Shown: positions 191 to 26,856 of the stretch, in pieces | Numbering within the stretch: the first letter of the stretch is position 1 | How the letters are laid out: every line of letters begins with the position of its first letter | DNA from: a virus | Taxonomy: Duplodnaviria > Caudoviricetes | IMG/VR virus record: IMGVR_UViG_3300042453_002905 | Location: 1 to 59,692 of that record | Reading direction: 5' to 3' (one strand) | Length of the DNA stretch: 59,692 nt | The notes under the pieces: generated by a model | What the model was told of the DNA's origin: nothing | What the model saw: only the letters and a program-made list of their open reading frames with translations | Database searches by the model: none | Position numbers and translations under genes: made by a program

Positions 191-271
191 TGATTGGCGA
201 CTGGACAGCACAACCGGCCGGGCGCGTTGCCCGACCGGCGAAACGATAACCCCGTAGAAGGAAACCCGACG

Positions 272-790
272 ATGAAAACGATGCTTGAAACCCTGGAGCC
301 GTACAGCGACGAGTACCGGGACGCGACGATTCACGGGAGGCGAATCGCGATTCCACTGGCCGACTCAATGACACGCGGCGACGACTTGGCCGAAATGGCA
401 CGCGAATGGATGACGACGAACGGCGTGAAAATGACCGCCAGCTTCGACAGTCACGGCAAGATGTTCTTCGATGACAAGAACTGCCGCGACATATGGAAGG
501 TGACCGTTCATCGCGGTCGGCGGTCATTCACCATCCGATTCGGTCAGTCGATTGTCGATTCTGACAACGGCATACCGCCGTGCGTGACCGACGTGCTTTC
601 CTGCCTGCCCAAGACCGAGCCGGAGAGCCTGGAGGACTTCATCGACTCCTACGGATCGTGCGACCCCGGGAGCATGACCGCGAAGGAGCGAGACTCACTG
701 CGGGCGTCGTGGCGAGAACTGCGGCGGCAATGGAGAGCGATGGAGCGTGTTCTGGCCGGCTGCGATCTCGACGGCCTGGAATTGTTTTGA
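272..790 (+). CDS. Hypothetical early-island protein
   Basis: AAGGAAAC RBS before MKTMLETLEP; preceded by the conserved leader cassette. Confidence 0.8.
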   Translation: MKTMLETLEPYSDEYRDATIHGRRIAIPLADSMTRGDDLAEMAREWMTTNGVKMTASFDSHGKMFFDDKNCRDIWKVTVHRGRRSFTIRFGQSIVDSDNGIPPCVTDVLSCLPKTEPESLEDFIDSYGSCDPGSMTAKERDSLRASWRELRRQWRAMERVLAGCDLDGLELF

Positions 791-901
791 CGTTGACCCC
801 CGGCACCCGCCCCGACTCGTGGAAACGCGACCGGGGCGGCTCCGGCGGCCACCGTGGCCCCGAACGTGGAAACGAGTAGACCCCGAAAGAGGAAACGAGA
901 A

Positions 902-1264
902 ATGAGCTACATGAAAAACGCGATCATTGAGATGGCCGAGGCGGGCGCGATTATGGCCGATCCGGCCGAGGTTGTGGCCTGGAGGAATGAGGGGCATGAC
1001 GTGCCCCTGCGATGGGTCGAGATCGACACCTACCGTGGCCGGCAGCCGATGCCGGCGATCGGCTTGGCGACGGCCGAGCGGCTGTCTCACACGATCGCCG
1101 ATGAGGCGGCCCGCGAGAATCTCCGGCAGGCCGTGGCCGACGCCACCGAATATCTCGATCTGATCGGCGGCCCCTGCCGCTGCGACGATTGCGGCTGCCG
1201 TGGGCAGTGGCACTTTTTCGTGAAGAGCCTGGGCGGCGAAACACTGTGCATCAATTGTGCGTGA
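902..1264 (+). CDS. Hypothetical protein with C-terminal CxxC...CxxC zinc ribbon
   Basis: GAGGAAAC RBS; CDDC and CINC motifs. Confidence 0.75.
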   Translation: MSYMKNAIIEMAEAGAIMADPAEVVAWRNEGHDVPLRWVEIDTYRGRQPMPAIGLATAERLSHTIADEAARENLRQAVADATEYLDLIGGPCRCDDCGCRGQWHFFVKSLGGETLCINCA

Positions 1265-1360
1265 CAACCCCGCCCCGGCGCGTTGCCGGGCCGGCGAAAC
1301 GATGAGAGGATGATTTCACCAGACCCCCGGACGGGGGAAAAGATACGAAAGGGAACAACG

Positions 1361-1597
1361 ATGCGACTTTTTGACAACGATGCGACGGCGAGCCTGACAG
1401 ACCGCGAACGGTCGCTGCTGGAGATGCTGGGGCGGTGCGAGCATTACCTGACCCAGCTTGTTCACTCCCGATTCATCGCCGGAAACGATCCGGCGTCGGC
1501 CGACATGCGTCAGCAGGCCGCGGGTCTTCAGAGGGCGGCCTTCAGCCTGATCGATAGCGACGACGCCACGCGGCGCGCCATGTACGCGGACGGCTGA
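1361..1597 (+). CDS. Hypothetical protein
   Basis: AAGGGAAC RBS; fills the gap between motif-bearing intergenic regions. Confidence 0.7.
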   Translation: MRLFDNDATASLTDRERSLLEMLGRCEHYLTQLVHSRFIAGNDPASADMRQQAAGLQRAAFSLIDSDDATRRAMYADG

Positions 1598-1701
1598 TCA
1601 CGACCCGCCCTGGTTTCCCCGGCCGGCGAAACGCTGACGGGGGCGACGGGCGGGCCGACGCGGCCCCGATCGTGGAAACCTGAAACCCTAGATGAGAGGA
1701 A

Positions 1702-2592
1702 ATGACTATGACTACCAAGACCCGATACCCAGTGGCCCGAAACTGCAAGTTCTCCACTCGTGAGGATGACCGCGGCAGGCTTGTCTGGAGGGCGATTGAG
1801 TGGGCCGATGCGGGCAAGTTCGATGCGAACGACCGCGACGAGGCGGCCGTGCTTGACGCCCTCGACGAACTGGAGGAGACGCTGGCCGAAAGTGCGGAGC
1901 AGGCTGGCCCAGACAATCCAGACGCCTGCGAGGCGTGCCATGCCGCCGAGGAGGCCGTGGCAGCCCGGCTCGTGGAAACGCGAGCCTGGTTCCTCGACGC
2001 CTTCAACGGGTCGCGGCTCGACGATCCCGATACGGTCGCCGCGCTGGAGAGGGTCGATTGGACTGATTACTACCCCGTGATCGACGGTGACCTGCGGCTC
2101 ACTGGCGAGTGGGTCTACGCAGACCAGGAGAATGCGGAAATGCTCAGCTACGACAACGAAGCGATGATCTCGCGGGACGACGCCGAGGCGGCCGGATGGA
2201 AGATCGACAGCGACGAGAGGACGGCCGAGCCGACGAAGCCAGTGATCGTCGAGTTTGCGGTAGCCACCGAGACGATCCGCGATCGTGGAGGCATCGACGA
2301 GTTCGCCGGGCTTGAGCACCCATACATGACCGAAGCCTGCGAAGCCTACCGGGCGGCGGCGGCGGAAGCCTTGGAGGACGATCACCGCGCTCGCCGGCTT
2401 GTGGTCGAACGCCCACAGGGGCAGCGGATTCTCCATTCAGCGTGGGCGGGCACCTACTGGAAGTATTCAAGCGGTGCAATCGGCACGATGGGCGACCTGA
2501 CCGATGACGAGAAGGCAGCCGTGTCGGCGGCCGACGATGCCGGCCGCGAGGCGGCGAGGAAGCTGATCGAGGAGGCCGACGCGGCTGAATGA
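1702..2592 (+). CDS. Highly acidic hypothetical protein (start 1702 or 1708)
   Basis: GAGAGGA RBS; 296 aa, visibly D/E-rich. Confidence 0.8.
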   Translation: MTMTTKTRYPVARNCKFSTREDDRGRLVWRAIEWADAGKFDANDRDEAAVLDALDELEETLAESAEQAGPDNPDACEACHAAEEAVAARLVETRAWFLDAFNGSRLDDPDTVAALERVDWTDYYPVIDGDLRLTGEWVYADQENAEMLSYDNEAMISRDDAEAAGWKIDSDERTAEPTKPVIVEFAVATETIRDRGGIDEFAGLEHPYMTEACEAYRAAAAEALEDDHRARRLVVERPQGQRILHSAWAGTYWKYSSGAIGTMGDLTDDEKAAVSAADDAGREAARKLIEEADAAE

Positions 2593-2664
2593 CCCCCTGA
2601 CCGTGGAAACGAGTGTTCGATAAACCCCTGCCGCCCAGAGCGGCGAAAACCGAGGAGAGGAACG

Positions 2665-3060
2665 ATGAAGATGAGCAAGAAAAAGCGAGCGGTCGCCGAC
2701 CGTATCAACGAGGCGACCAAATACTGCCGGGAGTTCGCCCCCGGCCTGGTGATGGCGAGGGCCACGCTCCTGCCATTCGAGGACGTGATCTACGGCGAGT
2801 CGGCTGGTCCGCAGCCTGCCGCCAAAGATTACGACCCCGACGAGGAGCCGTATTTCACGGTCGACATCGACGACCCCGGCAACCCCGGCGGCGAAACGTG
2901 GGCGAAGGTGACGGCCCACGGCGTGGTGATCTCGTACACGGTCAAAACGCCAGACGGCGAGACGTTCCTGGGCGACGAGATAAAGACCACACTTGACGGC
3001 TTGTGGGATTATCTGCGGCAACTGCCGCGATCGGCCGGCGGGTACTTTCGGAACAGGTGA
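2665..3060 (+). CDS. Hypothetical protein, acidic core
   Basis: GAGGAGAGGA RBS. Confidence 0.75.
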   Translation: MKMSKKKRAVADRINEATKYCREFAPGLVMARATLLPFEDVIYGESAGPQPAAKDYDPDEEPYFTVDIDDPGNPGGETWAKVTAHGVVISYTVKTPDGETFLGDEIKTTLDGLWDYLRQLPRSAGGYFRNR

Positions 3061-3132
3061 ACCCCATCGCCCCGGCGGCCCGCCGCCACCCCGGTGCGAC
3101 GAAACCCCGTGCGGCGAAATGAGAGGTGATTT

Positions 3133-3489
3133 ATGACAGCGAAACCAAAGGATGCGTATTCGATTGTGTTCACGCAGAAACGCACGATGGCGACCTGCCT
3201 GGCGTCATCCGTTGCAGACGGCGGAAACACTTACTACCTCAAGGCGAAGGGCGACCGATCCGCCGGCCACGTCGGCTATGCAATCATCGACAAGCCTGGT
3301 GAGGTGAAGGTATTCACGGCGAGTTGGAAACTCGTCGGCGTTGCGGCCACGCGGGCTGCGGCGGCCGAAATGATTGACTCGTATCACCGTAAGCACAACC
3401 GCGACCGCTACTGGTTGTGGCTCGACAAGCCATTTTGGTGCGGCGGAAAGCTGGCCCGGCCGGCGAAACGGAAGGGGGCGAAGAAATGA
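3133..3489 (+). CDS. Hypothetical protein
   Basis: GAGAGGTG RBS; ATGA overlap with the next gene. Confidence 0.75.
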   Translation: MTAKPKDAYSIVFTQKRTMATCLASSVADGGNTYYLKAKGDRSAGHVGYAIIDKPGEVKVFTASWKLVGVAATRAAAAEMIDSYHRKHNRDRYWLWLDKPFWCGGKLARPAKRKGAKK

Positions 3490-3680
3490 CGAATCGCATC
3501 ACCCCCTACGAAGCCGGCTGGCTCTCGATGCTGGTCGCCCGCGGACTGGCGACCGAGGCCGAGGCCCGCGAGGCCCAGCACCGGGTTGCCCGAGCCGCCA
3601 TCGACGAGATGGAGGCCCGCCGTGCGGCGAAACGGGAACTGAAAAAGAGGCTCAAGGGGCGTCGTCCGAAGGACGATTGA
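3486..3680 (+). CDS. Hypothetical protein
   Basis: ATGA translational coupling with the upstream gene. Confidence 0.65.
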   Translation: MTNRITPYEAGWLSMLVARGLATEAEAREAQHRVARAAIDEMEARRAAKRELKKRLKGRRPKDD

Positions 3681-3706
3681 CTACTGGCCGATAGTTTGCA
3701 TAGGCT
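3677..3706 (+). promoter_or_regulatory. Possible sigma70-type promoter TTGACT-N18-TAGGCT
   Basis: Near-consensus boxes. The spacer shares CTGGCCGA with the promoter at 58049. Confidence 0.35.
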
Positions 3707-3732
3707 TCACGCCGTCACAAGGAACCCCGATC

Positions 3733-4065
3733 GTGAAAACCCGAGAAGAACAGGAATACCGATTGTCGCCGCGGGTGACGCTGCGGGCCGGCGACACGAT
3801 CGCCGTGAGCCGTGGGCCGTACTGGCGGGCGGCCGGCGGCGAGAAGCTGCCGATGGCGGCGCGGGGGAAGTTCAGATTCCTCCACGCTCTCCACCGAGGG
3901 CGGCTCGTGTTGCTCGTGGCGGTTGGGAAACAGGGAGTCGCCATCCTTCACGTCGAGGGGCGGCGGCGAAACAAGTTGATACCGGAATTGGTTTGCCGTC
4001 CATATCGGGTGCGGAGAGTCGGCGGCGTTCGCCGGCCCCGTGCGAAGAAACGGCAGGAGGTCTGA
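3733..4065 (+). CDS. Basic hypothetical protein
   Basis: 110-aa ORF tiling the island. Confidence 0.65.
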   Translation: MKTREEQEYRLSPRVTLRAGDTIAVSRGPYWRAAGGEKLPMAARGKFRFLHALHRGRLVLLVAVGKQGVAILHVEGRRRNKLIPELVCRPYRVRRVGGVRRPRAKKRQEV

Positions 4066-4068
4066 GTT

Positions 4069-4374
4069 ATGGAAGATGGAACGACTGTGTACCTGGGGTC
4101 GGCGTATTTCTCGCCGACGAACGGCGATCTGGTGCATCACATTCAGCAGGTGAAGCGGTTCATCGGGCCGGGCGGGGCCGTGCTCTACGAACGCGAGGAC
4201 GGCAGCCGCGACCGGCAGTGGGGTTTCACCCATGAGTTTCCGGCGCTCGCCGAGGCCGAGGCGTGGTGCGCCGATGAACTGGAAAGGCTCATCGCCCCGA
4301 CCGTGGAAACGATTCGCACGCTCCGCGAGCAGGCCGCCGCCCGCGTTGCCTCCGAGGAGGTGGTGTCTGTATGA
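4069..4374 (+). CDS. Hypothetical protein
   Basis: CAGGAGG RBS. Confidence 0.75.
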   Translation: MEDGTTVYLGSAYFSPTNGDLVHHIQQVKRFIGPGGAVLYEREDGSRDRQWGFTHEFPALAEAEAWCADELERLIAPTVETIRTLREQAAARVASEEVVSV

Positions 4375-4655
4375 TTGTCATCGTTCGCGACACATGGCGT
4401 GCGGTGCTCGTGATCGTTGTAGTCACAGTGCTTCGGGGTCTGCCGGCCGAAAGGCCGGCGGCCCCGACCGTGGCAACGACGATGCCGCCGTCCCGGCAGA
4501 TGCCGTGGCAGCCGCCACCGCCGCCACCGCCGCCCCAGCCCCAGCCCCAGCAGATTGTCATTCACCAGCAACCCCAGCCCCCAGAGAGGCCGCTGCGGCG
4601 TGTAGCCGCGGCCCTCACAGAAGTCGGCGACAGCGTGATAGGAGTTTTCCGATGA
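4371..4655 (+). CDS. Membrane-anchored Pro/Gln-rich protein
   Basis: Hydrophobic N-terminus and poly-Pro tract; ATGA overlaps at both ends. Confidence 0.6.
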   Translation: MIVIVRDTWRAVLVIVVVTVLRGLPAERPAAPTVATTMPPSRQMPWQPPPPPPPPQPQPQQIVIHQQPQPPERPLRRVAAALTEVGDSVIGVFR

Positions 4656-4945
4656 AGATCGATCCTAGCGAGTTCCTGACGGCCGAGCAGGCCGCCCCAG
4701 AGATTGGCGCTCCGAATAAGAGGGCACTCTACCGGGCGATGAAGCGGGCGAGGGAGGCCGGCGAAACGGTAACCGTCGAGCTATTCGGCCGGTCGCTGAT
4801 CCCGAGGTCGAAACTCGCGGTGCTGAAACGGTATTACTACCCCTACTACTCTGACGCCCACCAGGCGATGGTGAAAGAGTGGGGCCGCCGGGGTGGCACG
4901 CAGAAGGGGAAGAACGCAGCCCGAGCGGCGAAACGAGCCACCTAG
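4652..4945 (+). CDS. Excisionase/MerR-like HTH DNA-binding protein with a KGG-like tail
   Basis: FLTAEQAAPEIG...ALYRAM helix pattern; WGRRGG tail; AGGAG RBS. Confidence 0.6.
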   Translation: MKIDPSEFLTAEQAAPEIGAPNKRALYRAMKRAREAGETVTVELFGRSLIPRSKLAVLKRYYYPYYSDAHQAMVKEWGRRGGTQKGKNAARAAKRAT

Positions 4946-5229
4946 CGGTTCTCGTGAGCCGTCTTCCGCGAGTGGCACTCGTGGTGCAGTAGTTGGAGAT
5001 TTTCGAGGCGGTCGGTGCCGCCTTGAGACTTCGGGACGACGTGATCGATATGGGGCTGCCCCGTTACGATCCTGCCACACGCTCGACACACACCCCCGTC
5101 CCTGGCAATGACTTGCTTCCGCAGTCGCCGCCACGCTGCCGAGCAGTAGCCACGGGCCGCGGCGGTCGGGCGGTTCTCTGGCGGGCGAACTTGCGATCTA
5201 GGACGAAACGTCGGGATTCTGCGAGGCAT
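4942..5229 (-). CDS. HNH endonuclease, HK97 gp74-like terminase partner
   Basis: RPTAAARGY...WRRLR...RD..CRAC...HIDHVVP...GG...NLQLLHHECHSRKT. Confidence 0.9.
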   Translation of the reverse strand: MPRRIPTFRPRSQVRPPENRPTAAARGYCSAAWRRLRKQVIARDGGVCRACGRIVTGQPHIDHVVPKSQGGTDRLENLQLLHHECHSRKTAHENR

Positions 5230-5557
5230 TGGCCCACCCTGCCATGAGGACACGGTGAGAGCCACGCTCCCACCACCATTCAAGCACGAGGCGAACGAGA
5301 TAGTTCGCCAGGACGCTGATCAGAAAACTGGCGAGCACGCCGGAGTAGCGTTCGCGGATGCGAACAGCCACCCGAGCGTGAACAACGTCGGGAATATGCT
5401 CCAGCGGGCAGTCGGTCGGCCACTCCTCGACGATCATTTCGACGATGCGATCACGCAGCCCCCCGTGGATCGCAAAGCGAACGCCAGCGCGTCTCGATAC
5501 GAACGATTTCAGGGGACGATACTTCGCGTCGGCCACTGGCAAGTGCCGTTCGGGCAT
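5198..5557 (-). CDS. Hypothetical protein, possible transmembrane segment (start uncertain)
   Basis: Tiles the operon; hydrophobic VLASFLISVLANYLV. Confidence 0.6.
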   Translation of the reverse strand: MPERHLPVADAKYRPLKSFVSRRAGVRFAIHGGLRDRIVEMIVEEWPTDCPLEHIPDVVHARVAVRIRERYSGVLASFLISVLANYLVRLVLEWWWERGSHRVLMAGWANASQNPDVSS

Positions 5558-5862
5558 GGGGCGACGCTCGCTTTCTTGATGGGGGCGGCGGGCTTCTTTG
5601 GCTTTCCAGTGCCATCGCACACAGGGCACTCCACGCTGACTCGTCCATCCGACACGCGGCCGACTCCGTTGCAGTTGGCGCACTTGTCGCCAGGCTGCGG
5701 CGCAGGCGTCGGGCCGGCGTCGGCCGACATCAGCGCATACGCCCCGGCAGCCGCAATCATCGGCTGAAGGTCTTGACGCTGAGTGACCTGAACGCACGAC
5801 ATCGGTGCCACGAGGGCAGCCAGCATGATTGTTGATCCGATGCTGTCGACGATCGCTTTCAT
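5509..5862 (-). CDS. Exported or lipoprotein-like protein with DnaJ-type CxxCxGxG zinc finger
   Basis: Signal-like N-terminus ending in C; CANCNGVG and CPVCDGTG motifs. Confidence 0.7.
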   Translation of the reverse strand: MKAIVDSIGSTIMLAALVAPMSCVQVTQRQDLQPMIAAAGAYALMSADAGPTPAPQPGDKCANCNGVGRVSDGRVSVECPVCDGTGKPKKPAAPIKKASVAPCPNGTCQWPTRSIVP

Positions 5863-6857
5863 ATGCGTCCCTTCGCTCCGTAGTCGGGAAGTTTTCTCGC
5901 CGGCCAGCCCGCAACGCTCGACAAGGCAATGCACGAGCATTTGTCGATGGTCGAGGCCAGCGCCCAGAAAGCACCGTGCGGGATATCAATGTTCGTGCCC
6001 ATCACCCGCCGCGGGCCTTTGTTCCAGATCGCCCACGAGTTTTGCCAGCCGACCAGAGCCTGGCCGTACTTGCGGATCGTCTCCGGCCGGTCGTCATACG
6101 AATGAAAAAGTTGGGCGTGGTGCCACACTCCGACCTGGCGACTCACGCCGTCTTCGTTCCGAGTTCGCTCGAATCCCAGAGCACTACAGTTGAAAACGGC
6201 ATAGCCGGCGGCGAGGAAATCTCTCACCTGCTCGCGGCCTTTCACGACCGTGGCCGTGCGGGCGACGTATTGATTCGACTCGTCGAGCCACTTCTGCGAC
6301 GGAGGCTTCGACCCGCCGAGGCGGATCGTGCGTTCGGTGTATCGGGTTAGGTCGATGCCAAGCTCTGGGTATGGCTTGCGAACCAAGAATCCTTGATTGG
6401 TCGCCACCTGGGCAGACTTCGAGCACACCCAGCCGTCGGAATCGTAGCCCCTCCACGCCCAAAGGCTCTCAGGAGCCACGACGCCTTGCGTGATCCCCTC
6501 GGCCGGCAACTCCGGCGGCCCCTCGATGACACCAGTCACCTCGTCGGGCTTGCCGTCATGGATTTCGCAGGCCATCGTCGTGAGCAGACAGTTCGCTGTG
6601 GCTCTGGCGACGCAGTCTCCGGTCAACTGGGTCGGGCCGGGGAACGAGCCAGGGAATACCTTCTCGACGAGTGGGAAGAGCAGCGTCAGCTTGCCGGCCC
6701 CTAGCCCCTCAAAGTCCCACTCAGAGGCCACGGTTCCGCCGTCTGGGTTTCCGCCATGCCGAATGATCGAATCGACGAACTCCTCGTCGGCGCGTAAATC
6801 CTGTCGGCACCCCATGAGGCCGCTGGAATACGCCTCTACGGGGTTGAAGCTACTCAT
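5859..6857 (-). CDS. Papain-like (C1) cysteine peptidase
   Basis: Q..GDC (QLTGDCVA), HA (WHHAQ) and QNSW catalytic motifs. Confidence 0.8.
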   Translation of the reverse strand: MSSFNPVEAYSSGLMGCRQDLRADEEFVDSIIRHGGNPDGGTVASEWDFEGLGAGKLTLLFPLVEKVFPGSFPGPTQLTGDCVARATANCLLTTMACEIHDGKPDEVTGVIEGPPELPAEGITQGVVAPESLWAWRGYDSDGWVCSKSAQVATNQGFLVRKPYPELGIDLTRYTERTIRLGGSKPPSQKWLDESNQYVARTATVVKGREQVRDFLAAGYAVFNCSALGFERTRNEDGVSRQVGVWHHAQLFHSYDDRPETIRKYGQALVGWQNSWAIWNKGPRRVMGTNIDIPHGAFWALASTIDKCSCIALSSVAGWPARKLPDYGAKGRI

Positions 6858-7332
6858 CCCGGTGTATCCCAAACGTCCACGAAAGAACCCCACACGCCGC
6901 CACCAGCTTCGTGCGGAGGTTGGCGTCGAGAGGCTTCACTTCAGCCCCGGCGGCGGCGAAAAAGACGCTGTCGATCGCCTCGGCCAGGCCGGGGTACTTC
7001 CCGACGTTTGCTTTGTCGATCGCCAGCCGCAGCGTGCCGCTATGGAAATTCACGAACTTCGCCGTGTCGGTGAGCACAGGCTGGTCATAGGTGCCATCAC
7101 GCAGCAGGACGAACGCCATCGAGTCATACAGGTTTTCAAGGTAGGCCCGATCCTTCGGCAGCATCGTCGCGACGACCGGCCGGAGGTCTTTCGCCCACAC
7201 GAGCAACTCCTTCGGTGGCCCCTCGCCGTCGATCACATGGTTCTGCGGGGGCCAAGGAATCTGTAGCTCGGCACCCTTCCACGCAAACAGCAGGAGAACC
7301 GCCACGGCGATGTACCTCACGGTCGAGTTCAC
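6850..7332 (-). CDS. Membrane-anchored hypothetical protein
   Basis: N-terminal hydrophobic helix; GTGA overlap. Confidence 0.75.
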   Translation of the reverse strand: MNSTVRYIAVAVLLLFAWKGAELQIPWPPQNHVIDGEGPPKELLVWAKDLRPVVATMLPKDRAYLENLYDSMAFVLLRDGTYDQPVLTDTAKFVNFHSGTLRLAIDKANVGKYPGLAEAIDSVFFAAAGAEVKPLDANLRTKLVAACGVLSWTFGIHRDE

Positions 7333-7595
7333 TTCTTGTCGCTCCCGTCGACCAGAGCAAGCGTCAAGGCGTCAATCGCCTGTCGCTGAGAGTCTTCGAG
7401 GTGGCCGGTCGCCACGATCCTCGTCCGAACCAGGCTCAACGCCTCGATCGCTTCCTTGAATGAAGGCATCGGCGAGGTTGTTGACGAGCCTGTCAGCGAC
7501 GGCCACGAAAAGCCGGCGAGCACTTCGCGAATCTTTGGCGAAGCGGCGATGACGATTGCCAAGATGACCGCCGCGTATTGAACCCATACGCTCAT
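7329..7595 (-). CDS. Small membrane protein (holin-like)
   Basis: N-terminal transmembrane segment; coupled overlaps. Confidence 0.6.
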   Translation of the reverse strand: MSVWVQYAAVILAIVIAASPKIREVLAGFSWPSLTGSSTTSPMPSFKEAIEALSLVRTRIVATGHLEDSQRQAIDALTLALVDGSDKK

Positions 7596-7876
7596 TCCTT
7601 ATCCCCCGTAATCTTTTCGGCAGCCCACTTGAAGAACGCCGCGCCTTCGGGGGTCTTCAGCACGGCCTCAAGGTGAAACAGCGCCTCGTCGTCGAGGGCC
7701 GTCAGGCTCTTCCCCGCGGCCCACTGAAGTGCCTTAACGATGGCGAGAGCCTGGTCATGTGGGGTCTGGGCAGAAGTCACCGCCTGAAGCCTGCCAAGAA
7801 GTGGTGCCCACTCCGCGAGCAGCTTCAACTTCTCAAACAGCGGGAACCCCGCGCCGTAGACTTCTTCATCCGTCAC
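7592..7876 (-). CDS. Hypothetical protein
   Basis: GTG start after an AAGGAGG RBS. Confidence 0.75.
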   Translation of the reverse strand: MTDEEVYGAGFPLFEKLKLLAEWAPLLGRLQAVTSAQTPHDQALAIVKALQWAAGKSLTALDDEALFHLEAVLKTPEGAAFFKWAAEKITGDKE

Positions 7877-8063
7877 GCTGCACCTCCTTGTGCTTTTTTC
7901 CGTAGAAGAACCGCAAATAGTCTTCACTCTCGAACCTGTTTCCGCTCGTCCGGTTGCCCCAGTGGCTTGGTGGCGGCTCAGGCACTTTGTTGAACAACGG
8001 CGGCGTGTCGTCTCCCCCGCGAGCGGGCAGTTCGGACTCCTCGATTCGCTCATTACTCGCCAT
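7866..8063 (-). CDS. Hypothetical protein
   Basis: Tiles the operon. Confidence 0.5.
   Translation of the reverse strand: MASNERIEESELPARGGDDTPPLFNKVPEPPPSHWGNRTSGNRFESEDYLRFFYGKKHKEVQRDG
7880..7893 (-). promoter_or_regulatory. CsrA-type site GCAC-AAGGAG-GTGC over the RBS
   Basis: Matches the ACANGGANGU consensus with an ANGGAN hexaloop. Confidence 0.55.
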
Positions 8064-8283
8064 CGCTATCGCCGTAAACGCTGTATTGCATCAGGTCGAA
8101 ACAGTCATCGAACATCGCTCTCGCGATCTCGCCCGCCTCAGTCCGAGACAGCTTCCCGTCGAACGTCCACAGCTCGTCCTCGACGATCGTCTCGCCTGTC
8201 TTGAACACGAGCCGCGCTTCTTTCTGCGCGACGATCAGACGTACTTCCGCCAGCATAGTTGTCTCGTCGTGTGCTCTTTCCAT
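8053..8283 (-). CDS. Acidic hypothetical protein
   Basis: Starts 1 nt after the upstream stop. Confidence 0.65.
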   Translation of the reverse strand: MERAHDETTMLAEVRLIVAQKEARLVFKTGETIVEDELWTFDGKLSRTEAGEIARAMFDDCFDLMQYSVYGDSDGE

Positions 8284-8284
8284 T

Positions 8285-8575
8285 CTAGTCGATGGGCCTG
8301 CCTCCCAGGCGTGATTCACGCTCGGCCTGAGTCCAGCCGGCGCGAAAGATCGCACACTGCAAACGAATCTCGTCACGCGACGGCAAATACTGCTCAGGCT
8401 CCGGTCGCTCCCCCAGCCCCAGCGAGTCGGCGAATGCTCGCACCTCGGCGGCTGTCATCGCCGTCTCGTCGCACAACTCGTCGAGCGTGCAGTCCGATGC
8501 CCAGAGGCGTCGAAACTGTCGTTTCTTATTCGCGGCGGCCTTGCCTTCGGGAGTGAGTTTCTTCCCTTCAGGCAT
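8285..8575 (-). CDS. Single-HTH protein, paralog of 10378-11067
   Basis: FRRLW...ELC...LGL and PSRDEI...W motifs shared with the 10378 protein. Confidence 0.65.
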   Translation of the reverse strand: MPEGKKLTPEGKAAANKKRQFRRLWASDCTLDELCDETAMTAAEVRAFADSLGLGERPEPEQYLPSRDEIRLQCAIFRAGWTQAERESRLGGRPID

Positions 8576-9440
8576 CCTCGCTCCCGTCGAGCCAGAACGC
8601 GATGTAGCGACAGCCGGGGTTCAGAAACATCTGCCAGCCGGCGTCGTGCATTCGCTTGTGGTGCGGGACGTGTTCACAGTCCTCGCCGGAATACCCGCCA
8701 GCCAGATATGCCCGCGTGTAGTAGACGCACAAGCCCCCGAAGGCCGAATTCATCGGCATCGGCCGCGAGCCGACGGGGGGGAGGAACATCGAGAACCAGC
8801 CCATGCCGATCTTGTGCCGGAGGTCATCCCACCAGCAGAGAGGCCGCGCAGCCCACGCATCGTAGTGAGCCACGCGAGGCGTGCCCTTGTCGTTGACCAT
8901 CCAGAGTGAGTAGCTCGCCATCCCTCCGGCCGAGAGGCCGCTGCACCGTAGCGACTCGCTCGCCAGGCACCCGATCGAGTTGAAAACGCCGTCCACGTCG
9001 AAGCCACCGTGGGGATCAAGGTCGAGCACGATCGTCCACGTTGTCTCTGAGGCGTGCTGCCGCACCCACTCTAGGCAGATGTTCCTGGCCCTCGCCAGCC
9101 GCTCCGTTCGCGACTTCTCAAACCCGCGGGTGTCTTCGACTCCAAGAAAATCATGCTGCACCGAGAGCCACGGGTTTCTCTGGGCGAATGCGTCGAGCAC
9201 CTGCGGCGTCGGGTCGGCCGAATCGTTCTCATAGATGAAACCCTTGAAGCTCCTGAACGCCGGGGCCACCTGCTCGACGAGGGCAAGGGTGTTCACGAGA
9301 TGGGGGCAGGCATTCCGGGCGATTCCGACGATGCAGGCGTCGAGGTCTTTTGCTGTCTCGCGGCCGATGCGAACCATCGCGTCGTACCTTTCTTGGTACG
9401 ACGGGTCGACGGGCCAGGCTTCGTTGATGTCAGTGATCAC
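8568..9440 (-). CDS. Glycosyltransferase, GT-A fold (Cap59/GT69-like)
   Basis: YENDS.D.T, RLARARN, DLD (DxD), SAFGGL and CEHV motifs. Confidence 0.85.
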   Translation of the reverse strand: MITDINEAWPVDPSYQERYDAMVRIGRETAKDLDACIVGIARNACPHLVNTLALVEQVAPAFRSFKGFIYENDSADPTPQVLDAFAQRNPWLSVQHDFLGVEDTRGFEKSRTERLARARNICLEWVRQHASETTWTIVLDLDPHGGFDVDGVFNSIGCLASESLRCSGLSAGGMASYSLWMVNDKGTPRVAHYDAWAARPLCWWDDLRHKIGMGWFSMFLPPVGSRPMPMNSAFGGLCVYYTRAYLAGGYSGEDCEHVPHHKRMHDAGWQMFLNPGCRYIAFWLDGSEDA

Positions 9441-10057
9441 GTGCCCTCCGAGAAAATCCAGAAGTGCTGCGGATGAGCACCAGGAATCGGGTGCTTCATG
9501 ATCCGAATGTCATCGCGGCAGAGACGGCGCAACTGCTGCCCGACGGCTTCGGCTGTGTCGTGAACCTCGATCAAAAACTTCGTGGAGCGAAACCACTCCG
9601 GCGTCGCCCCGGCCAGCACCAAAGCCTCGGCCCCCTCCACGTCGATCTTGACGAAATCAATCGCCGTCGAGCCACCGCGGTCGCCGCAAATGAATCGCAG
9701 GAAGTCGAGCGGCAGCGTCGTGATACCGACTGTTTCGACAACCGGAGCGTCGGCCTGGCCGCCCGCTCCGATCGGATGATCTACCAGCAGCGACGACTGA
9801 AGGGGGTCCGGCCGGAGGTGGAAATCAGCGACGCCGTGGCGTTCGGAGGCCGCAACATTCAGGCAATGGACATTCTCCGGCACGTTCGCCTGGAGCGTCG
9901 CGAACGCCCGCGGGTCAGGCTCGACGGCCAGCACGAAATCGAACCAGTCGGCCATCCATCGCGTCCACTCGCCGCGATTGGCTCCGATGTCGATGGCAAC
10001 TCGACGCTCGCCGTCAATCGCTCGTTCCTGAAACTCTGCCAGCCACGACTCGCTCAT
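9437..10057 (-). CDS. FkbM-family SAM methyltransferase
   Basis: DIGANRG, AVEP and KIDVEGAE motifs. Confidence 0.9.
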   Translation of the reverse strand: MSESWLAEFQERAIDGERRVAIDIGANRGEWTRWMADWFDFVLAVEPDPRAFATLQANVPENVHCLNVAASERHGVADFHLRPDPLQSSLLVDHPIGAGGQADAPVVETVGITTLPLDFLRFICGDRGGSTAIDFVKIDVEGAEALVLAGATPEWFRSTKFLIEVHDTAEAVGQQLRRLCRDDIRIMKHPIPGAHPQHFWIFSEGT

Positions 10058-10353
10058 TGCATAGCCTCCAAAAACTCTTTGGCATCACCAGCCGAACAGA
10101 CGACCGCCACCGGGCAGCCGAAACCGATAAGTTCTCGATGCCGGTGCGTCTGAATTCGCGTCGGCTCCTCGCCAGGGCGCTTGACCTCCATCCAGGCGAC
10201 GCGGCCGTCCTTGATGCACAAGACGTCAGGCAGGCCGACGACGCTGCCGTAGCCACCGCCGTGGGTCTTCATCACCCACCATCCGGCGGCTTTCGCGGTT
10301 GCCATAACCTTGGCTACGATCGTTCGCTCTAGCGGAGCTTTGCGACCGGGCAT
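10054..10353 (-). CDS. VRR-NUC nuclease (Holliday junction resolvase-like)
   Basis: E...GLPD...EVK.P...Q pattern. Confidence 0.9.
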   Translation of the reverse strand: MPGRKAPLERTIVAKVMATAKAAGWWVMKTHGGGYGSVVGLPDVLCIKDGRVAWMEVKRPGEEPTRIQTHRHRELIGFGCPVAVVCSAGDAKEFLEAMQ

Positions 10354-10359
10354 TTGTCT

Positions 10360-10379
10360 ATTGTGACGGCGCGTCGCCT
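10360..10379 (-). promoter_or_regulatory. Late-type promoter AGGCGAC-N7-CACAAT, probably leaderless
   Basis: Same spacing as three other copies; -10 box ends 6 nt before the ATG. Confidence 0.6.
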
Positions 10380-11067
10380 ATATGTCTACCGCAGTTTCTT
10401 CAAACGCAGCGTAGCGTCCGTCGTAGGAGTATGCCGGCATCTTCCACCTGCTGCGCCGGCCGCCGACCGCACGCTTCTCGGCCTCACCTGCCGGCCAAGA
10501 ACGCCGCACCTCGGCGGCCCGTTCGGCAATCTGCTCAGGAGTCGGATCATCGGGATGAACCGGATCGGCTTTCTCTCGTTTCGGCAATTTGTGTGCCTTC
10601 GCGAGCTTGTAGAGGTGCGACTGGCTGATGCCTCCCAGGCGTCGACAAATCTCGGCCACCGGCATGATCTCGGCCGGCTTGTGCCAGAGCCGAAACAGCG
10701 AGGGAATGTCGACGACGATCAAGTCGTTTCCCCGAGGGCGTCCGACACGCTCGCGATCGGGGAGCCTGAATCGCGACTTGAGCAGCGATGCGGTGCTTGG
10801 GCTGATGCGAAAATGCTGTGCTATCGCCTTTGTCGGCATCGTTGCCGGCGACATCTCCCAGAGGCGTCGAAACTCCGACTCGCTCACGTCGACCTTAATA
10901 CGGCCACGAAGCGGCGACAGTCGCCGCCGTGGCGGCAGCCCGAGACTTTGCCGCATCTCATGGACTTTCGACTCGCCGCACCGCAGCCGCTTCGCGATCT
11001 CGCACGTCGGCATCTCGATACGGTCACGGCTCCACAACTCAATCAGCATCTGCTCATCAGCACGCAT
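10378..11067 (-). CDS. Triple HTH-repeat protein (GcrA-HTH-like), candidate transcription regulator
   Basis: Three repeats of LW...MP...I.......S......(LG)LP.R; AAGGGAG RBS. Confidence 0.65.
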   Translation of the reverse strand: MRADEQMLIELWSRDRIEMPTCEIAKRLRCGESKVHEMRQSLGLPPRRRLSPLRGRIKVDVSESEFRRLWEMSPATMPTKAIAQHFRISPSTASLLKSRFRLPDRERVGRPRGNDLIVVDIPSLFRLWHKPAEIMPVAEICRRLGGISQSHLYKLAKAHKLPKREKADPVHPDDPTPEQIAERAAEVRRSWPAGEAEKRAVGGRRSRWKMPAYSYDGRYAAFEETAVDI

Positions 11068-11281
11068 TGTCAGCACTCCCTTCTTTCGGCAGCCGGCGTC
11101 GGTGGCACATGACACACATTTCCGCAGCCCCGAGCAATCGTTCCAGTTCCTCGATCCTGTCCGCCGCCTCCAGTAGGGCGGCTTTCTGCACGTCCTGCGT
11201 GTAGACGCAGGACTTAATTCGCTCGACTAAGTCGGTGCCGGCGTGGTAGCCGGCCACCTCACGAAGTTTTCTTGCGTCCAC
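11057..11281 (-). CDS. Hypothetical protein
   Basis: GTG start; LLEAADRIEELE motif common in phages. Confidence 0.6.
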   Translation of the reverse strand: MDARKLREVAGYHAGTDLVERIKSCVYTQDVQKAALLEAADRIEELERLLGAAEMCVMCHRRRLPKEGSADNAC

Positions 11282-11672
11282 GCTTGACTGCCTTCTTCGA
11301 TGTGGGCGTCGTCTCAGTGACAACCGGCTCTGGTGGCGCGGTGACGTCAGGCGTCGCGGCGTAGGCAAACAGCTTCGTCACGTCGACGTCGACGGCGACG
11401 GCCGTAGGCGTATCGCTGAAAACATCAACGACCTGCACCTGCTTCGCGAGGTCGCAGTGCTTAATGTCTGCAATGTGGGCGCGGGCCTCCTCGATCGTGT
11501 CGAAGCGTCGCGGGCTGTCGTAGCTCATCGCCACGGCCTCGCCGATATCAAGGACTTTCGTCGTCCACGGCCACGAGCAGTCCCACCGCCAGACGAAGCC
11601 GTAGCGGCTCGACTGCACCTGAAACCACACGTCTCCGTTGCCGTCCTGCATTTGGCAGACTCGATAACGCAT
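11259..11672 (-). CDS. Hypothetical protein
   Basis: TGATG coupling; GGAGAAGG RBS. Confidence 0.7.
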   Translation of the reverse strand: MRYRVCQMQDGNGDVWFQVQSSRYGFVWRWDCSWPWTTKVLDIGEAVAMSYDSPRRFDTIEEARAHIADIKHCDLAKQVQVVDVFSDTPTAVAVDVDVTKLFAYAATPDVTAPPEPVVTETTPTSKKAVKRGRKKTS

Positions 11673-11836
11673 CAGCCTTCTCCCCGTGGGTACTTTTCCT
11701 CAAACTCTTCAATAATTCGACGCATCGAACCCGTCTGGATCGCCCTGGCACACAGGTGCGCCGTGGCTCGGTAGCCGCAGATGCCGCCGCACGCAAAGCC
11801 GCCGATGAACCAGAGGATGCACAGCAGCAAAGTCAC
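11672..11836 (-). CDS. Small membrane protein (MTLLLCILWFIGGFACGG...)
   Basis: Not in the ORF track. GTGA overlap, GAGGAGG RBS, 54 aa. Confidence 0.6.
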   Translation of the reverse strand: MTLLLCILWFIGGFACGGICGYRATAHLCARAIQTGSMRRIIEEFEEKYPRGEG

Positions 11837-12069
11837 TTCTTCGCCTCCTCGTTCAAAAAACCCGTGGTAAACCGCGCCAACTCTTTGCTGAACACTTGGA
11901 TCGACTCAGCGAGCATGAACGTCGCCATCGCAAGCCCGTCGGCTCCGGCCTCCCGTGCGATCTTGCCATTCGCCTCGGCTAGGTCAGCGACGGTGCGAAG
12001 GGTCTTCATCATCACGAGGAGCCGCTGCAAGATGTCGGTGCGTTCTTCCGGGGTCACGATTGTCGCCAC
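11833..12069 (-). CDS. Hypothetical protein
   Basis: GTG after AAGGAGG. Confidence 0.65.
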   Translation of the reverse strand: MATIVTPEERTDILQRLLVMMKTLRTVADLAEANGKIAREAGADGLAMATFMLAESIQVFSKELARFTTGFLNEEAKK

Positions 12070-12491
12070 GACTGGCCCTCCTTGACGTACAGCGTCGGGT
12101 GGTAGCCGGCGGCGCGGGCGACGAGGAGCATGTGCGGATGAAACACCGCGACGGCGTGAGCCGCCTCCTCGTAGAGGTAATCGACGCCAAGAGCGGTCGC
12201 CGCCAGCCGGGAGACGCCGCGGCCACGGTAGTCCTCGTGGACGAACGACTCCAAGGTGTCCCAAGTGATGCCTGTCTCGTGATCCAGCCACTTCTCGGTT
12301 CTCGCCCAGCCGATTAGCCGGCCGTGGTCGCGCACCGTCGCGATCCAGAGTTCGTCGGCCGCGAAGCCGTCGCCGCGGATGATCCAGCCGAGCATCCGAT
12401 GGAAATCGCTGCCACGCTTGGTTAGGTGGCCTCGAAGATAGAGGAGGTCGCGCTCTTCGAGGTCGGCGAGGTGGAGGGTGCGGGTGATCAC
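12054..12491 (-). CDS. GNAT-family acetyltransferase
   Basis: FVHEDYRGRGV acetyl-CoA binding motif. Confidence 0.75.
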   Translation of the reverse strand: MITRTLHLADLEERDLLYLRGHLTKRGSDFHRMLGWIIRGDGFAADELWIATVRDHGRLIGWARTEKWLDHETGITWDTLESFVHEDYRGRGVSRLAATALGVDYLYEEAAHAVAVFHPHMLLVARAAGYHPTLYVKEGQSWRQS

Positions 12492-12949
12492 TTAGTCACC
12501 CTCCAAATCCTTGAACCCAACTCACTCATCGGCCGCAGCTTGTCTCGTGGAATGAACCGCGACGGGATGCCGTGACCTAGATCGCGAACCTCCGCTCGTT
12601 CGACCTGACTCTTCCACACCCAGCCAACGAGCGTGGCGTGGTCGCCGTGGTTGTCGGCGAGAACGTAGATGTCGGCGGCCACCGGCTTGTCCTGTCGGTG
12701 GATCAGATTCCTCCCAGCCTCCGCGGTCTTCACGTCGACCGTGTAGAGCAGCGGGATCACGAAATCGACGCCACCGTCGCCTTCGTGGCGGTCGAACGAG
12801 AAGTCAGGGCAGACACCACTGAAGTCGCCGAACGCGACCTCACCGAGCAGGCCGATGTCGTCGCAATTGCCGACGATCGCCCGATGCTTCTCGTGCCGGT
12901 CGTTGTGCGACTCGGTGCGCTTCGCGGCGAGGATTGAGATGACGTTCAC
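12488..12949 (-). CDS. PD-(D/E)xK nuclease-like protein
   Basis: G.LGE...DGGVDF...VDVKT pattern. Confidence 0.65.
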   Translation of the reverse strand: MNVISILAAKRTESHNDRHEKHRAIVGNCDDIGLLGEVAFGDFSGVCPDFSFDRHEGDGGVDFVIPLLYTVDVKTAEAGRNLIHRQDKPVAADIYVLADNHGDHATLVGWVWKSQVERAEVRDLGHGIPSRFIPRDKLRPMSELGSRIWRVTK

Positions 12950-13332
12950 TTCGACGCTTCCCATGTGTAGACCGCTTCTTTTGCGTCATCTCGCTGCTCC
13001 CGAAACAGCCGCTCGACGATCTCTGCCTTGTCGAGCTTCTCGACGAGTGCTTCCAGTGCCGTGGCGATGCGGTCGAGTGAGTCAGTCGTCACCTCGGCCT
13101 GCGACTTCTCTGGCCGGCTGCGTTCAGGCTGCGAAAGATGCTCGCGAATGTGGCTTTCGGCTTGCTCCTTGTTAACCAGCCACCGGCCGCTCGTCGAATG
13201 CTGGAAGCCGTCGACATCGCCGTCAGAAATGGCCTGGCGAAGCAGCTTGTATTGCGGCGAGTGCGCCGCCTTCTTGTCCCGCTGCGGGTAATCGAAATCA
13301 GCAAGACTGACATAGCCTGGAATCGTCGTCAC
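12946..13332 (-). CDS. Hypothetical protein flanked by a 37-nt direct repeat
   Basis: GTGA coupling; ends KEAVYTWEASK. Confidence 0.7.
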   Translation of the reverse strand: MTTIPGYVSLADFDYPQRDKKAAHSPQYKLLRQAISDGDVDGFQHSTSGRWLVNKEQAESHIREHLSQPERSRPEKSQAEVTTDSLDRIATALEALVEKLDKAEIVERLFREQRDDAKEAVYTWEASK

Positions 13333-13523
13333 TTTGTCACCTCCCATGTGTAAACAGCCTCTTTTCCTTCCTTGCGATAGCCAGTGAGTCGGTAGTGGCC
13401 GCCACGCAACCTCACGAACAGCTTGATCTGGTCGAACGGCATCGAGCACCAGTTGAGGCCATCCATCGGCCCGCCGAGAAAAATGGGCGTTTGGAAGTAC
13501 GCCGGCTTATCTCTGGCCTTCAC
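13329..13523 (-). CDS. Hypothetical protein (FLGGPMDG motif)
   Basis: GGAGG RBS, GTGA coupling; ends KEAVYTWEVTK. Confidence 0.7.
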   Translation of the reverse strand: MKARDKPAYFQTPIFLGGPMDGLNWCSMPFDQIKLFVRLRGGHYRLTGYRKEGKEAVYTWEVTK

Positions 13524-13804
13524 GTTGCCGACGCCTCCATGCGTACACACTCCTCCTCGTGACGCCACGAGAACATTGCGAAGCGATAAAACTGACGCAT
13601 CTCCGGCGTGAAGAACTCCTCGCCTCGCGTCCCCATTGCGTCGAAGAGCATGAACCAGTCCGACGTGTTCATATCGTCGAACCGCTGGTCGCGAACCAGC
13701 CTGACCGTCGTCGAATAGTCGCGACGAGAGATGCCGTCCTCTCGACAATACTCGCGGATGGCTGTGATGGCCGCTTCGATCAGCGTTTTCTTGAATATCT
13801 TCAT
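13520..13804 (-). CDS. Hypothetical protein
   Basis: AGGGA RBS; tiles the operon. Confidence 0.7.
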   Translation of the reverse strand: MKIFKKTLIEAAITAIREYCREDGISRRDYSTTVRLVRDQRFDDMNTSDWFMLFDAMGTRGEEFFTPEMRQFYRFAMFSWRHEEECVRMEASAT

Positions 13805-13881
13805 TGGTCAGTCCCTGGTCATGTACGGAATCAAACTGAGATAAAAACACCCACCCGCGATCACGAGGAGCGTGGCGATGT

Positions 13882-14070: not shown

Positions 14071-14072
14071 TG

Positions 14073-14086
14073 CTGAGTCCTTTCAG
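14073..14086 (-). promoter_or_regulatory. GGA-loop hairpin CTGA-AAGGAC-TCAG over the csrA RBS (possible autoregulation)
   Basis: 4-bp stem with an ANGGAN loop, 2 nt before the ATG. Confidence 0.5.
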
Positions 14087-14107
14087 GCAGTTGTGTCGGT
14101 GCGTAGT

Positions 14108-18783: not shown

Positions 18784-18805
18784 GGATCGAATGTCCTCTT
18801 GCTCG

Positions 18806-18856: not shown

Positions 18857-18859
18857 AAG

Positions 18860-18985: not shown

Positions 18986-18988
18986 AGA

Positions 18989-26849: not shown

Positions 26850-26856
26850 TGATTTG

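Follow-up and report, generated by a model that had tools for sequence, protein, structure and literature searches.

Asymmetric words oriented with transcription have been described in actinobacteriophages as stoperators, as start-associated sequences (SAS) with their extended forms (ESAS) and as the 18-bp motif of cluster EC, and of these only the stoperators have, to our knowledge, a known binder and mechanism of action. The stoperators of cluster A mycobacteriophages, read by L5 gp71 and by the TipsytheTRex repressor, are in the relevant passages of their description asymmetric many-copy sites that follow the direction of transcription and lie at promoters and in short intergenic spaces; L5-type repressors are described there as binding asymmetric 13-mers as monomers, a stoichiometry given as a proposal, with reversal of the site abolishing repression (PMC9283540). 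SAS and ESAS elements of cluster K and of cluster EF Microbacterium phages and the cluster EC motif are, in the portions of the literature that concern them, one-orientation asymmetric words found at, or 22-30 nt before, a subset of start codons, SAS and ESAS being kept across relatives even before unrelated genes and beyond the pairing with 16S rRNA (PMC3203893; PMC7302621). Here we describe a comparable 16-nt word, CCCCGRYCGKSGAAAC, in a 59,692-nucleotide stretch of DNA from an uncultivated tailed phage (IMG/VR record IMGVR_UViG_3300042453_002905; the whole stretch is called the window below). The word is genuine, conserved and strand-polar, a regulatory sequence of a single early operon in a widespread group of uncultivated phages, and it does not mark a genome end. 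The stretch that carries it is a single co-directional operon consisting of a GP88-family gene (g0), a seven-copy tandem array of the word, a conserved sigma70-like promoter (P2) and 12 small ORFan genes (g1 to g12). Neither the word nor its reverse complement was found in a full-text literature search, which returned only unrelated matches to a 12-mer.

The word is strongly non-random. An exact IUPAC search of the window finds seven matches, all on the plus strand, where 100 dinucleotide shuffles give an expectation of 0.00. Allowing up to two mismatches yields 21 matches (19 plus, 2 minus) against 1.17 expected and 4 in the richest shuffle, with 20 of the 21 falling within 59231..4934; the two on the minus strand are at 1613-1628, a palindromic overlap of the copy at 1617, and at 9732-9747. 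A position weight matrix (PWM) was then made from 18 seed copies and both strands were scanned at a threshold of 12 bits. This matrix, which favours its own consensus by construction, returns 24 plus-strand matches, every one inside 59205..4934 and on the sense strand of one operon, and adds six non-seed copies (811, 881, 1227, 4919, 59205 and 59491), that at 4919 scoring 16.9 bits; the minus strand reaches the threshold twice (1628 and 9747), and 100 Markov-1 simulated genomes hold on average 1.97 matches, both strands taken together, and at most 6. All 24 matches lie in 5,361 nt, which is 9.0% of the 59,565 unique bases. Further copies at 3089, 3105 (9.1 bits) and 4036 (8.8 bits) are weak, and one at 2883 is 15 nt long, one base short, and receives no PWM score.

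These scans bear out an earlier note on this DNA, made from the letters alone, which had described a strand-polar, non-palindromic, multi-copy site limited to a plus-strand island and had proposed a PWM check of both strands against shuffled sequence: 24 plus-strand matches to 2 on the minus strand is far above the simulated mean. The positions it listed are right and good to 1-2 nt (229, 811, 858, 1285, 1617, 1664, 1964, 2595, 3454, 3725, 4295, 4462 and 59470, with array copies starting at 59205, 59231, 59254, 59280, 59303, 59328 and 59377), although it missed those at 4919, 1227 and 4036 and the ribosome-binding-site variants at 59491, 250 and 881 that are discussed below. Its proposal that the motif marks one genome end does not survive. 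Since the assembly is circular, its two ends overlapping by 127 bp (IMG/VR class, direct terminal repeats), the copies at 59.2-59.5 kb and those at 0.2-4.9 kb form one contiguous region, and the apparent end is an artefact of where the circle was cut.

Conservation among related phages, to which the earlier note had looked, is evident, with the same word, polarity and layout in about 30 related IMG/VR and metagenome-assembled genome (MAG) contigs. The exact 16-mer is present in 28 IMG/VR stretches, 20 of which hold several copies, all on one strand and usually with a tandem array; extra relatives were gathered via a conserved neighbouring protein and from MAG contigs. The shared layout, as shown by tblastn, runs terS, GP88, array, mosaic small genes, g12-like gene and HNH, and terL is 74-82% identical. 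Over 22 related loci the PWM gives 359 major-strand and 10 minor-strand matches, copy counts that do not represent independent events because near-duplicate loci are included (L015/L021/L020, L017/L030, L019/L042 and L010/L053). In three complete relatives, of 57.6, 63.8 and 71.5 kb, the word is found 9, 13 and 0 times in the forward and 0, 0 and 16 times in the reverse direction, each set within one 5-10 kb region, and reversed-pattern controls in the same genomes give 0. The extended consensus is aCCCCGACCGTGGAAACGAnA, with conservation at background 2-5 nt outside the word; no partner element stands at a fixed distance from it, all positions past +5 and before -2 holding less than 0.25 bit (376 copies). 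Within the word, two conserved blocks, CCCCGA and GAAAC, have their centres about 10.5 bp apart, with positions 7 and 11 weaker, a shape that may be what one face of B-DNA would present.

The copies are mainly intergenic, 263 of 353 (75%) compared with 32% (2285 of 7060) of positions drawn at random from the same ranges, and the 90 in coding sequence, about a quarter, include some far from any start; these figures, like the start distances given below, are approximate because the genes of the relatives were called by a simple script based on third-position GC content and Shine-Dalgarno (SD) sequences. Neighbouring copies are spaced 15, 21, 23, 25 or 26 nt, and in five of the six genomes checked a copy lies 12-21 nt past the inferred P2 start site. 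The relatives carry mosaic sets of island genes (open reading frame clustering, 20 sets) with unchanged boundary sequences, the 16-mer being identical in phages whose island proteins share just 40-70% identity. The group stands apart from cultured phages: no near DNA match to the window was found among 50,697 phage records, and its terL is at most 42% identical to that of any cultured phage. No tRNA gene was found in the window phage. A scan of genome contigs returned four MAG contigs only (L037-L040), in bins of three different families, labelled Chakrabartia (Sphingomonadaceae), Solirubrobacteraceae and Microbacteriaceae; the labels contradict one another, so that they probably reflect faulty binning and give no reliable indication of the host. 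The DNA runs that hold the phage come from lake, freshwater and other metagenomes, and no RNA run was among those found.

Up to g10, nearly all gene boundaries in the window operon hold at least one sense-oriented copy; between abutting genes it falls within the 3' end of the preceding one (3454, 4036 and 4295), and no start lies near the copies at 1964, 4462 and 4919. At many gene starts one T-to-A change turns a copy into a ribosome-binding site. Such SD-type copies, with consensus CCCCGnnnGAGGAAAC, of which GAGGA is the SD sequence, take the form CCC..RGGAAAC-N4-8-ATG, often aACCCCGaAcGAGGAAACGAGAcgATG, and are found at 45 of 265 island starts but at none of 71 non-island window genes. In the window they precede g1, g2, g3 and g5, where a canonical motif ends 27-28 nt before the ATG and is followed by a second, SD-type copy that ends 6 nt (g1 and g2) or 5 nt (g3) before it, or 6 nt in the degenerate version at g5. 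The earlier statement that the motif is not a ribosome-binding site was thus half right, its one-base variant being the SD region at these island starts. The consensus differs from that of SAS (GGGATAGGAGCCC in cluster K, GGGAAAGGACCCC in cluster EF), and where the upstream part of ESAS consists of 17-bp imperfect inverted repeats, the upstream element here is the word itself, directly repeated at a distance of 21-23 nt; tandem arrays, intragenic copies and restriction to one operon also distinguish the present word from SAS and ESAS. As for RNA structure, complementarity upstream of the copies equals that of the reversed-sequence control (4.86 versus 4.77 for solo copies, n = 212; 4.75 versus 4.46 for array copies), and no class-specific upstream partner of the copies was seen. 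CsrA-type GGA sites were ruled out, as GGCGAAAC copies have no GGA, and CRISPR-repeat mimicry likewise, as only 16 nt are conserved and the spacers measure -1 to 10 nt (periods 15-26).

A sister lineage (L050/L051 of record G001, and L052), whose neighbouring protein is about 70% identical to that of the window, lacks the canonical word and has in its place, on the island strand, the variant (A/G)GACCCG-N6-7-G(C/A)AA(G). Only the two outer blocks are kept (GACCCG-N6-7-GCAA), and intermediates connect the two words, for example AGACCCGACCATGGCAAAG versus CCCCCGACCATGGAAACC. The variant recurs every 17-19 nt in tandem arrays, and a few further copies lie scattered or overlap a start; the arrays abut sigma54-type promoters (TGGCAC-N5-TTGCA), with a copy abutting or overlapping promoter elements. 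Six such promoter matches occur in L065 (G001) against 0.30 expected and three in L052 against 0.20, all on the island strand. That the sigma54-type promoter is a separate element in this lineage argues for the word being a regulator site rather than a promoter; the same promoters imply that the host has RpoN and that the early operon needs an enhancer-binding activator. They precede small early genes (L065, 14485-17820, minus; L052, 7421-11447, minus). In the window itself sigma54 promoters do not rise above chance (7 one-mismatch matches versus 4.79 expected).

The g12 family is the sole protein family that all 20 island sets share, and in each of them it lies on the motif strand. It was traced with a hidden Markov model to which 16 of the 20 sets contributed; the new matches, in L014, L029, L044, L053 and a second G003 copy, have E values of 1e-8 to 1e-32. 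The g12 homologue adjoins the HNH gene wherever tblastn found both, and a g12-type gene lies directly after the array in G003/L022, L014 and L023 (the last by reading the sequence). Subtype A comprises the window and most relatives, subtype B comprises G005, L014, L044, L053 and the first G003 copy, and subtype V, of the variant-motif phages, is distinct and has two helix-turn-helix (HTH) repeats. Homologues of g12 fall in 41 clusters, all unnamed, one of which carries PF13384/PF13551. The AlphaFold (AF2) model (mean predicted local distance difference test score, pLDDT, 87.9; 13-sequence alignment) consists of a winged helix of beta-alpha-alpha-beta-beta order and, after it, a long C-terminal helix with the conserved sequence YYPYYSxAHQxMVKxWG. 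Foldseek matches the model to TraN, RacA-DNA, Pukovnik Xis, BldC-DNA and pSK1 Par-centromere (E 0.1-1, probability 0.75-0.97), and VIA to ParA N-terminal winged HTH domains (Z 7.6-6.6), pSK1 Par on centromere DNA (6.3), RacA-DNA (5.7), a MerR protein (5.7; NmlR is among the matches), Pukovnik Xis (5.3), RdfS (4.9) and BldC-DNA (4.3-4.4), with root-mean-square deviations of 2.1-3.6 A over 49-64 residues; small-terminase HTH domains are also alike by VIA. These matches are modest for a small domain yet mutually consistent, and several of the matched proteins bind direct repeats head-to-tail, which suggests that g12 is a MerR/Xis-like winged-helix protein, a fold known to bind direct repeats. In the predicted fold of its first ~60 residues g12 resembles BldC of Streptomyces, D29 Gp36, phage Xis, pSK1 Par and RacA, a class that binds GC-rich or direct-repeat DNA as head-to-tail multimers, but it has no detectable sequence similarity to them and carries the extra conserved C-terminal helix. 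Phage D29 Gp36 is described, in the part of its report that deals with the site, as a small MerR-like repressor that acts on GC-rich direct repeats 21 bp apart and represses phage genes downstream, with one mapped repeat pair there compared with about 25 polar sites here (PMC12266134; see also PMC5859096).

The reading that we favour, tentatively and at somewhat less than an even chance, is that the word provides stoperator-like operators and roadblocks in DNA, bound by g12; we infer that the site is read as DNA, by g12, and with repression as the outcome. aCCCCGACCGTGGAAACGAnA would be recognised in double-stranded DNA by a phage protein acting as a monomer, most likely g12. The bound array upstream of P2, together with the copy at about +10 to +25, would hinder initiation or promoter escape, and the copies before nearly every gene would be orientation-dependent roadblocks to elongating RNA polymerase, as are the stoperators of cluster A mycobacteriophages. 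As the binder is made last from the same operon, accumulation of g12 would shut the early ORFan operon off, and if g12 is also made in the lysogen, the operon would stay silent there. SD-doubling copies would be sites squeezed into very short intergenic spaces, and the shared cassette would offer homology for the exchange of ORFan genes between relatives. Action as a DNA site is suggested by the two-block shape one helical turn apart, which the variant word keeps; by the copies close to or overlapping promoters, the array upstream of P2 and the copies within genes; and by the predicted DNA-binding fold of the only universal island protein, no RNA structure having been found; L5-type repressors and D29 Gp36 serve as precedents in the literature. 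Of the four options that the earlier note had raised, the stoperator-like one fares best, the copies being asymmetric, co-oriented with transcription and mainly intergenic, with one just past the promoter. Chi-like, packaging and antitermination roles found no specific support, and the word is almost absent from the rest of the three MAG bins.

The likeness to cluster A has its bounds. Cluster A stoperators have a 13-bp consensus, compared with a 16-20-nt word of unrelated sequence here; they are spread genome-wide over both arms, compared with 9% of the genome and one operon here; and tandem arrays upstream of a promoter are a feature of the present locus. The cluster A binder is a 183-aa immunity repressor with an HTH and a stoperator domain, whereas here it would be a predicted 97-aa winged helix encoded in the operon that it regulates, for which we likewise propose monomeric binding. 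No scanned window protein was named a gp71-type repressor, and no search aimed at a gp71-type sequence was made.

Several observations weigh against binding of the word by g12 as a DNA operator. The array periods (15, 21, 23, 25 and 26 nt) show no helical phasing, which is unusual for cooperative binders, although unphased spacing is compatible with independent monomers. A repressor encoded in its own repressed operon cannot alone hold a stable lysogenic off-state. The gap between the end of the motif and the start codon shows peaks at lengths of 5-6, 13-15 and 26-29 nt, and conservation of the SD-type copy extends to the ATG itself, both of which favour a role in translation; moreover, because no plus-strand terminator was found from GP88 to the array, every copy including the array could be transcribed, which makes an RNA target possible. 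Subtypes A and B of g12 differ in recognition-helix sequence yet share one motif, so that protein-site co-variation is coarse at best. The earlier note had named the gene at 4652-4945 as candidate binder and called it an HTH gene; the candidacy is strengthened by the distribution of the family and by the MerR/Xis-like model, but Pfam gives no HTH, or any other family, for g12 even at E 10, and there is no PDB sequence match. The fold matches are modest as well, at Foldseek E 0.1-1 and Z values below 8, which are common.

The points on translation lead to an RNA-level start-associated element like SAS/ESAS, in which a host or phage factor or the ribosome would read the word at or near the SD sequence and tune early-gene translation, with the transcribed array as a loading pad or decoy for the factor; we consider this possible, though on the unlikely side. 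The excess of SD-type copies at island starts and the start-distance peaks speak for it, as do the sense orientation of all copies in one transcription unit without a terminator found before the array and the variable array spacing, as in RNA protein-sponges, and published SAS motifs are, as far as the pertinent sections describe them, likewise asymmetric, start-linked and conserved beyond rRNA pairing (PMC3203893; PMC7302621; PMC12699233). It has to account, however, for the coding-sequence copies far from starts (1964, 4462 and 4919 in the window), for an array that lies upstream of P2 and enters RNA only via read-through from P1, for canonical copies with no proper SD (GTGG or GGCG, not GAGG), and for the lack of RNA structure found beside a sole universal island protein with a DNA-binding fold. 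A joint reading at two levels, which we hold to be unlikely, takes the word as an orientation-dependent DNA operator and, after the T-to-A change, as an RNA ribosome-binding site, in one self-contained early-gene cassette: the operator would serve a new family of monomeric Xis/MerR-like proteins, the same or a second factor could also gate translation, the transcribed array would be a loading pad or a sponge encoded in cis, the cassette would promote the swapping of anti-host ORFans as modules within a widespread group of lake phages, and sister lineages would have re-tuned both word and promoter type, from sigma70 to sigma54. Keeping the DNA operator but giving it another binder, either a host factor or the 226-aa double-HTH protein encoded at 21645-22325 as immunity repressor, is a rather unlikely alternative. 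The 226-aa protein has two HTH_17-like repeats and is present in five of five related records searched (33-46% identity), a lysogenic repressor on a toxic early operon is expected because the phage has an integrase, and an identical 16-mer despite island proteins that are 40-70% identical fits a very conserved or a host binder. Against it, the 226-aa gene has no link to the array, and the protein of the variant-motif record G001 is not set apart from those of canonical-motif phages, its 46% identity being the highest of the five. Co-variation of this protein with the site was looked for and none was seen. The 226-aa gene (minus strand) adjoins a tyrosine integrase gene (22524-23426, plus), for which reason the phage is probably temperate.

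The remaining explanations are improbable to differing degrees. That the word is an evolutionary footprint, a regulatory cassette of ribosome-binding region and upstream copy that spreads with ORFan shuffling and has no dedicated binder, we regard as quite improbable. Mosaic island gene content with constant boundary sequences agrees with it, as do intergenic cassettes that are alike over a longer stretch, e.g. GCGTTGCC before GGCGAAAC copies, and there is a precedent in the PeSL elements of T4-type phages, repeated regulatory sequences that in the parts of the sources describing them flank small ORFans in a hyper-variable early region of shuffled content (PMC2839356; PMC4122927). PeSL elements are, in those same parts, promoter-plus-stem-loop units, whereas neither stem-loop nor promoter is evident in the word here, and a footprint leaves unexplained the tandem arrays of 4-8 copies, the coding-sequence copies kept across 67-80% identical homologues, the sharp drop in conservation outside ~20 nt and the parallel diverged word with its own arrays in the sister lineage. 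A signal on entering or replicating DNA, be it Chi-like protection of the end injected first, a terminase or packaging site, replication iterons or a partition centromere, appears very improbable to us. In HK97-like phages cos is expected between HNH and terS. The island sits in that interval, tandem and inverted repeats of other kinds occur in the region, the array is reminiscent of iterons or of the repeats of a centromere, and the model of g12 is similar to N-terminal domains of ParA, to pSK1 Par and to HTH domains of small terminases. Iterons and partition centromeres are tandem direct repeats of constant spacing beside the gene for their binding protein; here the array abuts a g12-type gene in G003/L022, L014 and L023, the spacing varies between 15 and 26 nt, and most copies are scattered at gene starts. 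A 16-20-nt word with 75% of its copies intergenic and tied to gene starts does not fit such a signal, the three MAG bins, which may not be the host's, hold 1, 1 and 1 copies outside the phage contig in 3.0, 1.8 and 1.7 Mb, the replication genes are ~10-17 kb off, and no ParA gene is among the ~40 window proteins scanned. Least probable of all, in our judgement, is that an RNA polymerase holoenzyme, either alternative or directed by the phage, uses the word as a promoter or as the key element of one, with a separate transcript for each small gene. The 3' block GGAAAC of the word resembles a -35 element of extracytoplasmic-function type, and sigma54-type promoters precede several island genes in the variant lineage; these are separate elements beside the word, though, and the word has no conserved partner (-10) element at any fixed distance, occurs in tandem with periods down to 15 nt, and is accompanied by no RNA polymerase or sigma gene among the window proteins scanned. 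The polar position 22-30 nt before start codons is like that of promoter-like motifs in some phages, among them the Microbacterium phages of cluster EC with their asymmetric 18-bp motif; these phages encode a sigma factor, according to the part of the source that treats them (PMC7302621).

The proposed stoperator-like operators would act within the unit set out in Table 1, which is placed between terS and HNH and is the sole long plus-strand unit of the window. On the minus strand lie terS (58021-57209), terL, the portal, capsid and tail genes, the HNH endonuclease gene (5283-4942) and replication genes for an SNF2 helicase, a PrimPol and a UvrD-like helicase. No terminator-like site was found on the plus strand between P1/GP88 and g1. 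Among g1-g12, eleven proteins were scanned (g11 against Pfam only, g1 by its first 60 residues only): they gave zero Pfam families and, in PHROGs, three marginal matches (E 0.007-0.009), all to families of unknown function.

Table 1. Positions in the window of the operon's promoters, genes and copies of the word
Feature	Position	Strand	Remarks
P1, sigma70-like promoter TTGACA-17-TACAAT	58049..58077	+	11/12 consensus positions; upstream of GP88, would start the plus-strand unit
g0, GP88-family gene (PF17338)	58135..59148	+	Pfam E 1.7e-21; start 58135 inferred from homologue lengths
Tandem array, 7 copies	59205..59392	+	periods 23-26 nt, one 49 nt; counterpart arrays in relatives
Conserved 24-nt box AATTCTCACnnTCCCAACTGTCCA	59347..59370	+	between array and its last copy; conserved in at least seven relatives (L012, L017, L019, L028, L029, L032, L035)
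P2, sigma70-like promoter TTGACC-16-TACTCT	59424..59451	+	relatives: TTGACT/TTGACA-16-TAnnnT (G002, G003, G004, G005, L017)
Promoter-proximal copy	59470-59485	+	~+10 to +25 from inferred P2 start site
SD-bearing copy CCCCGAATGAGGAAAC	59491-59506	+	ends 6 nt before g1 ATG (59513)
Copy 229-244 and SD-bearing copy 250-265	229..265	+	upstream of g2 (ATG 272)
Copies 811-826, 858-873 and SD-bearing copy 881-896	811..896	+	upstream of g3 (ATG 902)
Copies 1227-1242 (g3 3' end) and 1285-1300	1227..1300	+	upstream of g4 (ATG 1361)
Copies 1617-1632 and 1664-1679	1617..1679	+	upstream of g5 (ATG 1708); second ends 28 nt before ATG
Copy within g5 coding sequence, away from gene starts	1964..1979	+	
Copy 3 nt past g5 stop codon	2595..2610	+	upstream of g6 (ATG 2665)
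Two weak copies	3089..3120	+	upstream of g7 (ATG 3133)
Copy in g7 3' end	3454..3469	+	ends 16 nt before g8 ATG (3486)
Copy	3725..3740	+	upstream of g9 (start 3733 or 3763)
Weak copy in g9 3' end	4036..4051	+	ends 17 nt before g10 ATG (4069)
Copy inside g10, ends 60 nt before g11	4295..4310	+	same place in g10 homologues of L010/L053, L042
Copy inside g11	4462..4477	+	
g12, 97 aa, last operon gene, convergent with HNH (5283-4942)	4652..4945	+	motif copy 4919-4934 inside

The GP88 gene lies directly upstream of the array, in the same orientation, in all relatives that cover the region (tblastn: L015/L021, L031, L022 and L023). It has 95 homologous clusters in metagenomes, an Atlas search returns the GP88 family only, and a literature search on GP88 and PF17338 found nothing relevant. 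Its AF2 model (pLDDT 82) has weak matches to radical S-adenosylmethionine (radical-SAM) enzymes, namely spore photoproduct lyase (Z 6.1) and QueE (5.9), with many such chains in the top 25, and three cysteines, C102, C109 and C113 (CX6CX3C), are invariant in 21 homologues; judging from the model, GP88 could be an iron-sulfur enzyme. As a binder of the motif GP88 was dropped, the fold search being only weakly radical-SAM-like and the Atlas returning the GP88 family alone. Second to g12 in how widely they are shared among islands come g8 (3486-3680, 64 aa, helical), present in 13 loci, and g9 (3763-4065, 100 aa), present in 11 loci and also in the variant-motif phages at ~50% identity; neither has a family assignment. 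Just upstream of P1 a perfect 15-nt inverted repeat, CACAATATTTTGTGG / CCACAAAATATTGTG, occupies 57987-58001 and 58018-58032 with its arms 16 nt apart, and by its sequence may represent a cos-region element or an operator. In its N-terminal portion, at ~57880-57965, the terS reading frame (57209-58021, minus) encodes GHDAG five times from a 15-nt tandem repeat; since the Terminase_4 domain begins only at residue 155, the true terS probably starts later and this part is probably non-coding repeat DNA. In relatives the interval from GP88 to the array holds other, phage-specific tandem repeats, such as (CA)n, GGGCGCG-type runs and 20-30-nt units.

The same design of asymmetric, transcription-oriented words is thus now seen in uncultivated, environmentally widespread phages that have no close cultured relative, with the added features of arrays at a promoter, a one-base switch between site and ribosome-binding site, and a single universal small winged-helix gene as candidate binder. 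The sister lineage, with its diverged word, its diverged protein subtype and its sigma54 promoters, amounts to a natural specificity swap. If it is true that g12 binds the word, these phages would possess a second, structurally unrelated route to orientation-dependent silencing, in the form of a compact and portable repressor/operator pair.

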